This document shows, one piece after another, positions 19,666 through 64,000 of a DNA stretch of 64,000 nt; the first letter of the stretch is position 1, and every line of letters begins with the position of its first letter. The notes beneath the pieces were generated by a model. That model saw nothing but the letters and a program-made list of their open reading frames with translations, did no database searches and had not been told where the DNA came from. The translations under genes were made by a program, and so were the position numbers. The DNA comes from a phage, in the sequence record NC_103192.1, one strand, 5' to 3'.

Positions 19666-19926
19666 TTACAGCACCTCTTCGTCAACTACTTCATAAAAAT
19701 GGCCTGGGATTGCAATAGCGTTCTCACCTTCACCTACAAACACAGTTCCGTCAAGAATCAACATCATAAGAATTTCTGTAATATCCTCTTCCGGAACGTT
19801 GCCAAAACCTTTAATCAACTTATAGGTCGGGATATCCGCCTCTAGGATGTCTCCATCTTTAGAACGGAAATCAACACCTTCCTGAATCTCTGCCGTTTCA
19901 AGGTTTTTCAATTTAATCTTCATCAA
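19666..19926 (-). CDS. Small acidic protein, family A
   Basis: MMKIKLKNL start; shares the family pattern. Confidence 0.5.
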   Translation of the reverse strand: MMKIKLKNLETAEIQEGVDFRSKDGDILEADIPTYKLIKGFGNVPEEDITEILMMLILDGTVFVGEGENAIAIPGHFYEVVDEEVL

Positions 19927-20002: not shown

Positions 20003-20398
20003 TTACTGAAACAGTGCAGATAAATTACCTTCTGGTGGAAACTTATCTGCCAAGAACGGAGTCAGAACAGTGGCCTTCTGGAGATCTGGAGTCCACTCGT
20101 TGTTCAGAACATCCCAGTAGTACGCAATGTTACTGTGTGGGTGCCGCATTACGAACTTTTTCCCTTCGTAGTCATCTGAAACCTCTACAGAAGAAATAAC
20201 AACAGAATCTTCAAGGGTTTCTTCATAGAAAGATCCGCCTTCAAATTTCCAACGAGATGCAAGAGCCCCTGCCTTGAACGCTGCAGATAACGGACTGTCG
20301 GCAAGAACATACATTTCTTGCATTCTGTCGCTGCGATCTTTGCTTCTTACGTTGTATACAGTATCTGAGCTATACTCAACACGGTATAGGCTTACCAT
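20003..20398 (-). CDS. Paralog family B protein
   Basis: Shares HP.S...YW......WTP block with the 22205..22603 product. Confidence 0.5.
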   Translation of the reverse strand: MVSLYRVEYSSDTVYNVRSKDRSDRMQEMYVLADSPLSAAFKAGALASRWKFEGGSFYEETLEDSVVISSVEVSDDYEGKKFVMRHPHSNIAYYWDVLNNEWTPDLQKATVLTPFLADKFPPEGNLSALFQ

Positions 20399-21090: not shown

Positions 21091-21360
21091 TTACTCTTCT
21101 ACAATCTCATACACATCCGGAGTTACAATCAACTCTTCCCCGTTACCTGGTGCAACAAACACTACCAAACCTTCAGGTGTGTGCTTTTTAGCCATCTCGA
21201 TGACATCTTCTCGCAGAGCTGGCTCCATCAGATCAAAACCTTCACCCAGGGCATCACGAACCACCTTCATGTAGTCAACTGGTTGTGCTTCAACGATCAT
21301 GCCTTCAACCAGTCCACAGTTTTTGTCTGCCAGTTCAGTTTGGAATAATTTAATTTTCAT
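21091..21360 (-). CDS. Small acidic protein, family A
   Basis: MKIKLFQTEL start; acidic. Confidence 0.45.
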   Translation of the reverse strand: MKIKLFQTELADKNCGLVEGMIVEAQPVDYMKVVRDALGEGFDLMEPALREDVIEMAKKHTPEGLVVFVAPGNGEELIVTPDVYEIVEE

Positions 21361-21503
21361 TTAGAGGTCTCCTCAATTATTTGATATTAATAGCCGTAAC
21401 CTAACACATTAACTACAACTGCGATTGCAAACATAATTCCAAAGCATGCAATCTCTACATTTGGGATTAATTTCTTAATCGTGCCCATTGTAGCACCTCA
21501 ATC

Positions 21504-21815
21504 TCAAAAGTCAATCTTTACTTTACCTTTTCCCTTACCTTTCTTTCCACCGCATTTAGCCAACTGGCGTGCTGCAACATCCACCATACGGTCAGTTGCC
21601 TCGTAAGCATCACTACCTTTAGCTTTGGCGATAACTTCTTTTCCAGAAGTGTCAAAAATGAAAGCCATAACTTCCTGGTGATCATTTTCAACTTTTACAC
21701 TCACACGTGCATAGTTGGCAGAGGGGTGCAAACGCTCCAGCTTGGACATTTTGTTGGAAATGAAAGACACCATACCTTCAGTGATCTCTACGTTGCCAGT
21801 GATTTCAATTTGCAT
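21504..21815 (-). CDS. hpf: Ribosome hibernation promoting factor / RaiA-family protein
   Basis: MQIEITGNVEITEGMVSFISNKMSKLERL...DAYEATDRMVDVAARQLAK aligns by eye with E. coli HPF (MQLNITGNNVEITEALREFVTAKFAKLEQY...DMYAAIDGLIDKLARQLTK). Confidence 0.8.
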   Translation of the reverse strand: MQIEITGNVEITEGMVSFISNKMSKLERLHPSANYARVSVKVENDHQEVMAFIFDTSGKEVIAKAKGSDAYEATDRMVDVAARQLAKCGGKKGKGKGKVKIDF

Positions 21816-21896
21816 AATGTGTTCCTTTTAAAGAAGAGGGACCAACCCCTCTTTGAAAACAATGATACTAAATCTGAAGCGTTGTGTCAACAGTTT

Positions 21897-22204: not shown

Positions 22205-22603
22205 TCAGCTTATCTTTTCTTCAACAACCCCATAGCTTGGGGCAGAGTCAAGAGCTTTCTGGTTCAAAAGTGGTGTAGCAGAATCTGCAAACGGTGTCCA
22301 GGTTTTTGTTCTGGCATTCCAGTAATGCTTCACTCTGGAATCAGGATGCACTATAACAAAAACTTTTTCACTTGTCAACACATTAATTTCTTCCACACCC
22401 TTACTGACAATTTCTCCGTCATAGCCCCCAGTCTGGTATCCTTCGTACCAGGTTCTTGCATAGGCATAGCCAGCCTGCCAGCATGCAGCCTCCTCCGAGG
22501 TGGAGACTACGTAGAAGTCTTTCTCAAATTCTGGGATACGCCCTTGCTTTACGCTCCAAGCTCCGCGAATTTTCATTGTAACTTTGAACAGTTTATTTTT
22601 CAC
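22205..22603 (-). CDS. Paralog family B protein
   Basis: VIVHPDSRVKHYWNARTKTWTP matches VMRHPHSNIAYYWDVLNNEWTP in the 20003 gene. Confidence 0.5.
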   Translation of the reverse strand: MKNKLFKVTMKIRGAWSVKQGRIPEFEKDFYVVSTSEEAACWQAGYAYARTWYEGYQTGGYDGEIVSKGVEEINVLTSEKVFVIVHPDSRVKHYWNARTKTWTPFADSATPLLNQKALDSAPSYGVVEEKIS

Positions 22604-60600: not shown

Positions 60601-60675
60601 GCCACCCAGTGCCCTGTTAGCTTAGTGGATAAAGCAGCGGCCTTCTAAGCCGTTGACACTGGTTCGAGTCCAGTA
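60601..60675 (+). tRNA. tRNA-Arg (anticodon TCT)
   Basis: Hand-folded cloverleaf: acceptor GCCCTGT/ACGGGGT, anticodon loop CTTCTAA, T-loop TTCGAGT, CCA encoded. Confidence 0.7.
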
Positions 60676-60815
60676 CGGGGTGCCAAGTTCTTTTTAATGT
60701 AGCTTACTTTAGCAGAGTAAATCTTCGGCAAGTGGCGGTAACCACTTTACCGATACCTCATAGTTAGTGGTGAGAACACTAGCTATTTTAAAAAGAATTT
60801 AAATATTAGTATTTA

Positions 60816-60903
60816 GGTGAGTTAATTCCGTAGGGGTAGCGGGGCAGACTGTAAATCTGTTATCATTGCGATTCGGGTGGTTCGACTCCATCACTCACCA
60901 CCA
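60816..60903 (+). tRNA. tRNA-Tyr (anticodon GTA), long variable arm
   Basis: Acceptor GGTGAGT/ACTCACC, anticodon arm CAGACTGTAAATCTG as in E. coli tRNA-Tyr, T-loop TTCGACT, CCA. Confidence 0.7.
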
Positions 60904-61017
60904 AATTTATATTTTTAAATGCATAAATCATACAGATAATGGCATTGATATTTATCGTCGTTTATACTAGTCACTAACTGCTCGAAAATCAGTGTCATTA
61001 TCAGTATTGTTTATAAA

Positions 61018-61108
61018 AGAGGGTAGGGAGCAATGGTGCTCAAGCGGTCTTGAAAACCGTCCCGTTGAGGATGACTCGATGATGGTTCGATTCCATTATC
61101 CTCTGCCA
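61018..61108 (+). tRNA. tRNA-Ser (anticodon TGA), long variable arm
   Basis: Acceptor AGAGGGT/ATCCTCT, anticodon arm CGGTCTTGAAAACCG, T-loop TTCGATT, CCA. Confidence 0.7.
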
Positions 61109-61206
61109 TATTGTTGACTATGTAATTAAGCGAAAGCCGGAAGCAGAACCGGATTATCAAATGTTACAGTCGTCATCGCCGACTAGCAACATGGTCAACA
61201 TACTGA

Positions 61207-61305
61207 GCTAGGTAAGCCCTTTGGCAAGGGCGAGGATTTTTAATCCTGAAAATAGACGAGGTAGTCGTTGAATACATAGGTGGTTCGATTCCATCACCTA
61301 GCACC
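61207..61305 (+). tRNA. Atypical tRNA-like element (type II shape, irregular anticodon arm)
   Basis: Acceptor GCTAGGT/ACCTAGC, D-arm GCCC/GGGC, T-loop TTCGATT, long variable arm; anticodon region is either a 5-nt loop or a 4-bp stem with TTTTTAA loop; no CCA. Confidence 0.35.
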
Positions 61306-61310
61306 TTTTT

Positions 61311-61386
61311 GCTGATGTAGCACAATTGGTAGTGCAATTGATTTGTAATCAATAGGTTGCAGGTTCAAGTCCTGCCATCAGCACCA
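61311..61386 (+). tRNA. tRNA-Thr (anticodon TGT)
   Basis: Acceptor GCTGATG/CATCAGC, anticodon loop TTTGTAA, T-loop TTCAAGT, CCA. Confidence 0.75.
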
Positions 61387-61387
61387 T

Positions 61388-61462
61388 GGCCCTGTAGCTG
61401 GAAGGTTCAAGCAAGCGACTCATAATCGCCAGACGGTGGTTCAATTCCACCCAGGGCCACCA
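61388..61462 (+). tRNA. tRNA-Met or Ile2 (anticodon CAT)
   Basis: Acceptor GGCCCTG/CAGGGCC, anticodon loop CTCATAA, T-loop TTCAATT, CCA. Confidence 0.75.
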
Positions 61463-61473
61463 AATAATAAATA

Positions 61474-61550
61474 CTCCGCGTAGCTCAGCTTGGTAGAGTG
61501 CCTGATTTGGGATCAGGAGGTCGAGTGTTCGAATCACTCCGTGGAGACCA
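61474..61550 (+). tRNA. tRNA-Pro (anticodon TGG)
   Basis: Acceptor CTCCGCG/CGTGGAG, anticodon loop TTTGGGA, T-loop TTCGAAT, CCA. Confidence 0.75.
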
Positions 61551-62370: not shown

Positions 62371-62654
62371 GAGTTGCTACACTATTTATTGTGTGCTTGT
62401 TATTATGTGGGTGTGCAACCAGTGTTGAGAAAGAATACAAGATTGACCCTCCAGATGTAGGAAGGTTGATTGTTAAACCCCCAGAAGGTGCTATGAAACC
62501 ACCTGCTAAAGCTATGCCTTTGAAGAAAGGTGCGCCAGATGCAGTAAATTCTGGCATTATGAGGGATAATAATCTGTCTTGTAGCAATGATAGAGCTAAA
62601 TTGATCATTTTGCAAGACTATATTAGAACACTTTTTCCAAAGGAGAGAGGTTAA
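62367..62654 (+). CDS. o-spanin-like lipoprotein (Rz1-like)
   Basis: Signal with lipobox-like LLCGCAT; proline-rich mature part. Confidence 0.55.
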   Translation: MRVATLFIVCLLLCGCATSVEKEYKIDPPDVGRLIVKPPEGAMKPPAKAMPLKKGAPDAVNSGIMRDNNLSCSNDRAKLIILQDYIRTLFPKERG

Positions 62655-63079
62655 TGTCTAAGATTTACGGACCGTGTTCTGAAAAGCAGAAGATGATCCT
62701 CGAAAACGATGCAGATATTTTGGTAATCGGCGGTGCCGCAGGGTCTGGCAAGTCGTTCCTCTTGCAGTTGATGCCACTTAAAATTATTGATGACCCCCAC
62801 AGCTCTGTGGTTATGTTCCGAAGAACAACCCCACAGTTGGAAGGTGAGGGTGGGCTATGGCCTAAAGCAGTAGCTATTTATAGCGATCTGCCTGAAAACA
62901 TTAAGCCAAAGTTCAGAGAGAAGGATCATAAGTTCATTTTCCCACGGTTTGATCCGGGCACTGGCAAGTGGGATAGAAGCAAAAAGGGAGCTGTTGTAAA
63001 ATACTGCCACATGGAGTATGTACAAGATAAGCTTAACCATCAAGGGCTTGAGTACACCATGGTTTGCTTTGATGAGGGT
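62654..63079 (+). CDS. terL: Terminase large subunit, exon 1 (ATPase N-terminal part)
   Basis: Walker A GGAAGSGKS, Walker B MVCFDEG; reading frame then hits a stop where the intron begins. Confidence 0.7.
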
Positions 63080-63398
63080 TAATTTGTAGCTCTCGTAAAA
63101 CCTCCCTAATTGCGGGGAAATCTTTATTATTGACACCACCAACCTGTCATGGTAACATGACAGAGGCTTCGAAGAGAGATCGAAGGTATGGTAACAGTGT
63201 GTTAATTTAGATAATCCGCAGCGAAGCATCCGAAAGGATGAACGTTCAACGACTAGTCGAAAGACGTAGAATCAAGCGATTCGAAACGGGAGGATAAGCG
63301 GTTGTTGTCGCTTATAAGATATAGTCTGGTCTGCATGGAGACATGCAGCTGCCTGAAAATGGCGGGGCAAGACTAGCGACCTTGCCCGAACATAAACG
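63080..63398 (+). mobile_element. Group I intron (ORF-less) in terminase large subunit gene
   Basis: GTTCAACGACTAGTC and AAGATATAGTC core elements (P7-like), P9-like hairpin; exon 1 ends on U of ggt; frame resumes TQFEWEQIDYLMSRL. Confidence 0.6.
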
Positions 63399-63716
63399 AC
63401 GCAATTCGAATGGGAGCAGATAGACTACCTAATGTCTCGTCTGCGATCTCAGTCAAAGTATCCATCAAGAATGGTTATCAGCTGTAACCCCGACTCAGAA
63501 CACATGCTTGCCAAACTGATTAGGTGGTGGTTGGACGATGAAGGGTATCCAGATCCGGAGAAATGTGGTAAGAAAAGATATTTTATCCGACGCGACGGTG
63601 AATTTATCTGGGGAGACTCTAAGGAAGAGTTAATAGAGAAATACACCACGGTTAACGGACTAGGTGTGGAGATCAAGCCAAGACCGTTGTCATTCTCGTT
63701 CATAGGCGCAACCATT
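63399..63716 (+). CDS. terL: Terminase large subunit, exon 2
   Basis: Continues the ATPase domain (RMVISCNPD region) in frame after the intron; ends at a stop followed by a second intron. Confidence 0.6.
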
Positions 63717-64000
63717 AAATGATAGTGGCTTCGTGCAGAAATGCACGTCGAATAACTTCGTTAATTGCTGGAAAATCCTTTATGAAAGGACAATCAGCAG
63801 CCAAGCCTGAATATTCAGGAAGGTTCAACGACTATCCTGAGAGGGAGTAGGGCGCAAGCTTATGGCGCTCGAAAAGCGAAGCACCCTGAGATGGGTGGTG
63901 ATATAGTCTACTCTGCATGGTAACATGCAGCGGCACGTAATGGTGCGGAGGGTGGTGTTGCGACCACCCTTGAATATAAGGATTCGATAATCCTGTCTGC
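63717..64000 (+). mobile_element. Second group I intron in terminase gene (3' end beyond window)
   Basis: GTTCAACGACTA and GATATAGTC elements and a P9 hairpin closely resembling intron 1 and the nrdD intron. Confidence 0.55.

Follow-up and report, generated by a model that had tools for sequence, protein, structure and literature searches.

The DNA analyzed here (the window) is a stretch of 64,000 nucleotides from the phage sequence record NC_103192.1, and it carries a gene of the ribosome hibernation promoting factor (HPF) family within an array of small leftwards-transcribed genes (Table 1). The 4 kb around this gene have counterparts at 94–95% identity in 120 phage records of Vequintavirus, the genus of the rV5-like myoviruses with genomes of ~136 kb, which places the window in this genus and agrees with the phage origin given in a preliminary description made from the sequence. 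The protein starts MQIEITGNVEITEGMVSF and ends ARQLAKCGGKKGKGKGKVKIDF (complete sequence, MQIEITGNVEITEGMVSFISNKMSKLERLHPSANYARVSVKVENDHQEVMAFIFDTSGKEVIAKAKGSDAYEATDRMVDVAARQLAKCGGKKGKGKGKVKIDF), with residues 1–88 forming the folded S30AE core and residues 89–103 (GGKKGKGKGKVKIDF) a polybasic tail that is predicted to be disordered.

Table 1. Features of the window, with positions counted from its first nucleotide
Feature	Position	Strand	Remarks
86-aa ORF	19666-19926		
131- and 132-aa ORFs, paralogous	20003-20398 and 22205-22603	-	Flank the HPF gene; 28% identity to each other, E=3e-11; phrog_7379
89-aa ORF	21091-21360	-	Two genes downstream of the HPF gene; phrog_11868
33-aa hydrophobic ORF (MGTIKKLIPNVEIACFGIMFAIAVVVNVLGYGY)	21387-21488	-	15 nt after the HPF stop; strong Shine-Dalgarno sequence GAGGTG
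Promoter-like site	21487-21514	-	TTGACT-16-TACAAT, extended TG; within the last HPF codons
HPF-family CDS	21504-21815	-	ATG-to-TGA ORF; 103 aa plus TGA stop
Gly/Lys repeat with GGGG run	21504-21550		3' end of the HPF gene
Shine-Dalgarno-like AAGGA	21823-21827	-	7 nt before the HPF ATG; read from sequence
6-bp leader hairpin (AGAGGG/CCCUCU)	21835-21852	-	Between promoter and Shine-Dalgarno sequence; MFE fold
Sigma-70-type promoter, putative	21862-21890	-	TTGACA-17 nt-TATCAT; 47 nt upstream of the HPF ATG
tRNA cluster	60611-61550	+	ARAGORN: Arg(tct), Ser(tga), Thr(tgt), Met(cat), Pro(tgg)
tRNA added by Rfam	60816-60900		39 bits
tRNA-Ser omitted by Rfam	61018-61108		
ARAGORN 'tRNA-???'	61207-61305		99 nt, 4-base anticodon; Rfam 35.5 bits
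First exon ORF of the intron-bearing gene	62654-63082		
Two group I introns (RF00028)	63070-63348 and 63706-63930	+	Rfam, 84 and 93 bits

The HPF gene lies outside any rpoN (sigma-54) operon and has a putative sigma-70-type promoter of its own. The promoter matches the consensus at 11 of 12 positions in a consensus scan and is kept in every aligned rV5-like locus, and its TTGACA (-35) is also present in a divergent phage, P0004. It is annotated as 'Sigma70-type promoter; P144' in the rV5 record (DQ832317), and PhagePromoter predicts the same site in phage Gotham. The record of phage Murica gives a ribosome_binding_site where the AAGGA sequence lies, and this sequence, like the promoter, is conserved among the rV5-like loci. 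As a host-type promoter situated in a block of small ORFs is suggestive of early expression, these signals suggest that the gene is expressed early and from its own promoter. The leader hairpin was considered as a regulatory element or terminator and rejected: its folding z-score of -0.57 against shuffled sequences is chance-like, and a terminator scan is silent. It is roughly conserved in the rV5-like phages and missing from the P0004 phage, and an Rfam search of the 5' leader assigns no family, the sole match being noise (E=0.48).

Searches of the neighbouring ORFs with Pfam and PADLOC give no matches, and the ORFs belong to PHROGs without assigned function; PADLOC, run on the HPF protein and three neighbours, yields no link to defence or anti-defence for any of them. 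Immediately downstream, the 33-aa ORF is conserved in the rV5-like phages (phrog_15151), with ATA in place of the ATG in phage D#, and is lacking in the P0004 phage; its start codon overlaps the -10 of the promoter-like site at the end of the HPF gene, a site that PhagePromoter predicts in Gotham too. It possibly encodes a small membrane peptide that is co-transcribed with HPF. The 89-aa ORF corresponds to a second 'sigma 54 modulation factor' in the records of phages APECc02 and pangalan, a label that we regard as a mis-annotation, as the product is without a Pfam match and belongs to phrog_11868. It is weakly similar to the 86-aa ORF (34% identity, E=0.006), a hint from sequence that small acidic proteins encoded in this block form a paralogous family. 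In the rV5 record, ORF 142, at the position of the rightmost of the paralogous 131- and 132-aa ORFs, is noted as similar to a protein of Listeria phage A118.

The preliminary description identified the HPF gene product as a homolog of bacterial HPF/RaiA, and this is borne out by family profiles, by matches to HPF chains and by the predicted fold. In the Pfam search that it proposed as a check, PF02482 (Ribosomal_S30AE) matches residues 3–88 with E=1.1e-12 and 48.9 bits, above the curated gathering cut-off of 23.7, and covers nearly the whole domain (profile positions 1–83 of 88); with TIGR00741, the model of the HPF/YfiA family, the score is 47.1 bits and the cut-off 40.9. The sequence motifs on which the description relied are likewise present. 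The MQxxITG-NVEITE start reads MQIEITGNVEITE in the phage protein and MQLNITGNNVEITE in Escherichia coli HPF, with one residue fewer in the phage protein; the C-terminal block ARQLAK corresponds to ARQLTK; and this block is followed by a Gly/Lys-rich tail. The closest sequences of solved structure are the E. coli HPF chains 2rql, 4v8h and 6h4n (E about 1e-11), and in a tblastn search of the whole window E. coli HPF has a single match, the HPF gene itself (42% over 88 aa, E=4e-14). We regard it as nearly certain that the protein belongs to the HPF family.

Within the family, the sequence comparisons place the phage protein nearer to HPF than to RaiA. The best NCBIfam model is PRK10470, the enterobacterial HPF equivalog, at 55.5 bits (the equivalog cut-off of 125 is not reached), whereas PRK10324, the RaiA equivalog, scores 19.4 bits, far under its cut-off of 158; similarly, the 42% identity to E. 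coli HPF compares with 24% (E=0.002) when YfiA is the tblastn query on the window. The 103-aa protein contains no second Pfam domain and no Ribosom_S30AE_C dimerisation domain of the kind found in the long HPFs of Firmicutes type, and its residues 90–103 are predicted to be disordered, so it is not a long HPF. Its own PHROG is phrog_12469 (E=6e-69), with phrog_8990, which contains other phage S30AE proteins, matched only at E=1e-6.

An AlphaFold2 model, computed from an alignment of the phage protein with Enterobacterales HPFs, has a mean pLDDT of 84.7, with values below 50 in the tail, which is disordered from residue 90. The predicted elements (E2-7, H13-29, E33-43, E46-55, E60-67, H70-89) follow the order beta-alpha-beta-beta-beta-alpha. 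In a Foldseek search of the PDB the best 36 matches are without exception chains of HPF, YfiA or pY, led by Vibrio cholerae HPF (4hei, rmsd 1.0 A) and by 6h4n_x, the HPF chain of the E. coli 100S ribosome (rmsd 1.1 A, 41% identity).

The gene has been annotated since 2008, and its GenBank names include 'sigma 54 modulation factor', 'ribosome hibernation promoting factor', 'RaiA' and 'ATP-dependent protease La type I'. The first is a historical misnomer, which arose because bacterial hpf adjoins rpoN. The last, found in several Vequintavirus records, is plainly wrong, and 'RaiA' is less apt given the ~22–24% identity to YfiA, the low score with the RaiA model (19.4 bits against 158) and the acidic, longer tail of YfiA. 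The rV5 copy, ORF 144 (ABI79209, 105 aa, 'sigma 54 modulation factor' in DQ832317), is the same gene, being 98% identical with the same promoter, neighbours and Gly/Lys tail; the allele in the window differs in length (103 versus 105 aa) and at 1–2 residues (N21 for H, T56 for N).

Mizuno et al. (2019, Nat Commun 10:752, PMC6375957) included rV5 HPF among virus-encoded ribosomal proteins and examined it experimentally. The protein was expressed from pBAD24 in E. coli and 70S and 100S ribosomes were purified under high salt; by mass spectrometry, rV5 HPF peptides were present in the crude extract and not in the high-salt-washed 70S and 100S fractions, and 100S levels were unchanged (PMC6375957). 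The authors named the stringent salt wash or the growth phase as possible causes of the missing association, and proposed that the viral HPF, in competition with the homologs of the cell, might keep dimers from forming (PMC6375957). In the literature we found no functional work on the phage HPF after this study beyond a restatement in PMC6969025 that rV5 phages contain hpf, and the CRISPRi-ART paper, whose passages on the rV5-like phage EdH4 deal with the capsid and rII genes, makes no mention of hibernation (PMC11879866). With its database annotation since rV5 and the 2019 paper with an experiment, the gene is thus already known and is not the discovery as which the preliminary description treated it; furthermore, that description suggested that the protein could dimerise or silence host ribosomes to redirect translation, or counter defences that target translation, and the only published experiment points against such activities. 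New in the present analysis are an estimate of selection, a comparison of the tails, the divergence residue by residue and the finding that phages have no RMF.

The phage protein shares the fold of E. coli short HPF (YhbH; 2RQL, 4V8H, 6H4N, 6Y69) at 38–42% identity and, like it, has no C-terminal dimerisation domain. The two have in common the MQxxITG-NVEIT start, the ARQLxK block and the basic alpha-2 residues R83, K87 and K91, but the phage protein lacks one residue in the beta1-alpha1 loop and has an additional one ahead of beta4, is changed at Y30, D51, T53, K80 and K89, is not encoded in an rpoN operon and is without a phage-encoded RMF partner. The enterobacterial short HPF acts jointly with RMF, turning the 90S dimers that RMF induces into 100S; a tblastn search for RMF over 50,697 phage records, and over the window as well, finds no homolog. 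E. coli YfiA/RaiA (protein Y; 1N3G, 4V8I) has the same domain and is a monomeric 70S-type factor with a C-terminal extension past the length of HPF. Among other phages, a Foldseek search of BFVD returns the same fold in large myoviruses and jumbo phages, namely GAP32 of Cronobacter (K4F6Q6) and PBECO4 of Escherichia (L7TII8), both of which were also given as phage HPFs by Mizuno et al. (PMC6375957). At 13–24% identity to the rV5-like protein, and as members of a different PHROG (phrog_8990), these S30AE genes most likely represent independent acquisitions.

The gene is widespread among the rV5-like phages. In a tblastn search of the phage collection the protein is present in 116 records at at least 95% identity and in one more at 90–95%, with one Salmonella phage match at below 60%; among the 120 genomes that share the region, ~117 have the gene at about 95% identity or more, and phages ECP32, ECP26, S127 BCL3 and B9-1 have the 103-aa allele at 100% identity. 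Two further loci are found in IMG/VR, both rV5-like. A word-indexed protein search with the phage HPF returns phage copies only, and an exhaustive phmmer search of 1.84 billion cluster representatives gives a single match below 1e-10, the P0004 protein, which is ~64–65% identical; no cellular HPF in that search exceeds 44% identity, and the Enterobacterales HPFs align at 35–40%. The second-best phmmer match, P0127 (1160 aa, 9 stretches), is a repeat protein matched over residues 35–81 only and was set aside as spurious. P0004 is represented by phage-sized contigs of up to ~137 kb with a similar array of small genes, including an 89-aa gene after the HPF copy as in the window; the HPF gene has thus remained at a syntenic position while synonymous sites diverged to saturation. 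Sequence comparison thus describes the phage HPFs as an isolated and narrow clade, old or fast-diverged and now constrained, which qualifies the 2019 suggestion of a recent transfer.

The HPF gene is under strong purifying selection. Over the 88-codon core of seven rV5-like alleles dN/dS is 0.02–0.19, and mostly 0.03–0.07, with dS of up to 0.57. These values bear directly on whether the gene is a functionless passenger, either a captured host gene adrift or an artefact of ORF calling, as might be proposed from its variable C-terminal end (+GE, +WD, and frameshifts in APECc02 and Murica) and from the lack of a reported phenotype. Selection on the core, presence in ~117 of 120 genomes, retention in the sister lineage past synonymous saturation, the conserved promoter and Shine-Dalgarno sequence, and the peptides detected upon expression all speak to the contrary; the selection and conservation data effectively refute the passenger explanation, and we consider it very improbable. 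That a strictly lytic phage keeps a factor of the ribosome-silencing type under strong selection is a puzzle.

Contacts with the ribosome were taken from cryo-EM work on Gram-negative HPF and YfiA (bioRxiv 10.1101/2025.10.07.680626) and mapped, in E. coli numbering, through an alignment with 24 diverse cellular homologs. All six near-invariant positions of the family are retained in the phage protein (T12, K22, G58, D69, Y71, D75), as are the contact residues K23, K26, R/K29, E44, D75, D79, R83, Q84, K87 and K91, of which R83 is the arginine on m4C1402 (bioRxiv 10.1101/2025.10.07.680626). By contrast, five 16S rRNA contact positions that are well conserved in cellular HPFs are altered in both phage lineages, the window protein having Y30L, E/D51M, T53F, K80V and K89G. 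Position 30, which stacks on A790, is Y, H, F or W in 20 of the 24 cellular homologs and L in the phage lineages. At the m2G966 platform, position 51 is E or D in 19 and position 53 is T, V or I in 21 of the homologs, with M or S and F or R, respectively, in the phages. The basic contacts at positions 80 (K in 18 of 24) and 89 (K or R in 18 of 24) are replaced in the phages by V or T and by G or S, respectively.

We lean slightly towards a protein that binds idle host ribosomes weakly and in a salt-sensitive manner, in the fashion of a short HPF. Expressed early from its sigma-70-type promoter amid a long block of small genes without assigned function, the protein would resemble cellular short HPF in docking, by its core, onto ribosomes that are not translating, in the tRNA/mRNA channel of their 30S subunit. 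Docking would use the retained basic track on alpha-2 (R83, K87, K91) and alpha-1 (K23, K26, R29), and the flexible polybasic tail would add non-specific affinity for rRNA along the mRNA channel. With the contacts changed at Y30L, E/D51M, T53F, K80V and K89G, binding is probably weaker and sensitive to salt, which would reconcile membership in the family with the negative high-salt experiment. As a result, idle ribosomes of the host would be parked or shielded during infection, or the phage protein would vie for them with host HPF, YfiA and RMF; that it drives the formation of 100S dimers is unlikely, since there is no phage RMF and no effect on 100S was seen. The family and fold, the six invariant positions, the retained contacts, purifying selection, the syntenic P0004 copy and the conserved promoter are all in keeping with such a binder. 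It has to be weighed, however, that the sole direct test was negative for high-salt 70S and 100S ribosomes, with an unchanged 100S profile (PMC6375957), that five rRNA-contact positions are replaced in both lineages, two of them (51 and 53) on the m2G966 platform, and that an early general blocker of translation looks counter-productive for a lytic phage, the timing being read solely from the promoter motif. Whether the phage HPF binds ribosomes in the canonical manner is, in our estimate, evenly balanced. If it is active on ribosomes in infection, it would offer simple access to the way in which phages treat dormant or idle ribosomes, a matter of relevance to the infection of stationary-phase cells and persisters and to therapy with rV5-like phages.

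The same substitutions can be read in another way, namely that the S30AE scaffold has been kept and, no longer active at the decoding site of the ribosome, has been turned to a different RNA or protein, such as an mRNA of host or phage, or a factor involved in defence or stress. The negative association test fits this, as do the changes at 30, 51, 53, 80 and 89 common to lineages only 64% identical, the isolation of the clade with a single match below 1e-10, and the move of the pI from 6.5 to 9.0; an HPF with a second, non-ribosomal partner is known from Staphylococcus aureus, the partner being YwlG (PMC9522360). Yet the most diagnostic of the rRNA-binding residues (R83, K87, K91, K23, K26, D75) are just those kept under strong purifying selection, and the neighbouring genes, with no Pfam or PADLOC matches, hint at no partner, so that a change of target appears doubtful to us.

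The C-terminal tail sets the phage protein apart from both cellular factors. With 15 aa and a net charge of +5 it is 8 residues longer than the tail of E. coli HPF (KDKLKQH, 7 aa, net +2), whereas the tail of YfiA, at 25 aa, exceeds it by 10 residues and is acidic with a net charge of -4; the pI of the whole protein is 9.0, versus 6.5 for E. coli HPF. In P0004 the tail is basic as well, with KWDY as its last residues where the window protein has KIDF, and this likeness suggests that the basic tail is functional. One function to consider is that of YfiA, whose C-terminal extension points to the RMF site and is considered to prevent 100S from forming (bioRxiv 10.1101/2025.10.07.680626): the phage protein would sit at the HPF site with its tail directed toward the RMF/anti-Shine-Dalgarno site and exclude RMF and host HPF, and ribosomes of starved or stationary hosts would remain 70S monomers, or revert to them, and could be recruited by the phage. 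A tail extending 8 residues past that of E. coli HPF, the competition proposed by Mizuno et al., the lack of an increase in 100S and the lack of a phage RMF are all compatible with this. We nevertheless regard it as unlikely, as the A/P-site channel would still be occupied and translation blocked until release, the charge of the phage tail (+5 against -4) and its length differ from those of YfiA, and no ribosome association was detected (PMC6375957).

In a further and rather speculative reading, to which we attach a low probability, the phage protein is a re-tooled hibernation factor that has lost part of the m2G966-platform and K80/K89 contacts, has acquired a polybasic tail whose end, K-(I/W)-D-(F/Y), is conserved, and has an early anti-hibernation or ribosome-shielding role. 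Such a protein might displace host HPF, YfiA or RMF and wake 100S ribosomes in starved cells, or it might cover the decoding center against a defence effector that cleaves rRNA or mRNA; it would in either case be a phage counter-measure against the dormant state of the ribosome.

The extreme C-terminus varies among the rV5-like phages. F103 is followed by GE in rV5, by WD in another isolate and by nothing in the window allele, which stops at F103 because a GGA codon has changed to TGA with the loss of the last two residues (GE); judging from these alleles, residues beyond F103 are dispensable. Isolates also differ in the GGGG run of the Gly/Lys repeat, which makes the 3' end of the gene unstable, and a gain or loss of one base in this run has frameshifted the tails of APECc02 (...GRKKGKGERQSKD) and Murica (...GKGKAK). 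Murica HPF also has an additional Asn, which gives it an E. coli-like GNNVEIT. The frameshifted tails and the extra Asn may be true variants or homopolymer sequencing errors.

Among the database records, 18 GenBank entries labelled 'Campylobacter phage' (MG0656xx, UNVERIFIED and unannotated) are 94–95% identical to the region and are classed as Vequintavirus, and their host label is probably wrong. Toward the right end of the window, two group I introns interrupt the gene that is called large terminase in rV5. The corresponding region of rV5 is ~700 bp longer and contains an HNH homing endonuclease, which the window is without. A cluster of tRNA genes lies to the left of the introns, and its annotation differs between programs: Rfam omits the Ser gene called by ARAGORN and adds another element, and ARAGORN reports a tRNA with a 4-base anticodon. 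The two low-scoring tRNA elements may be pseudo-tRNAs or unusual tRNAs.
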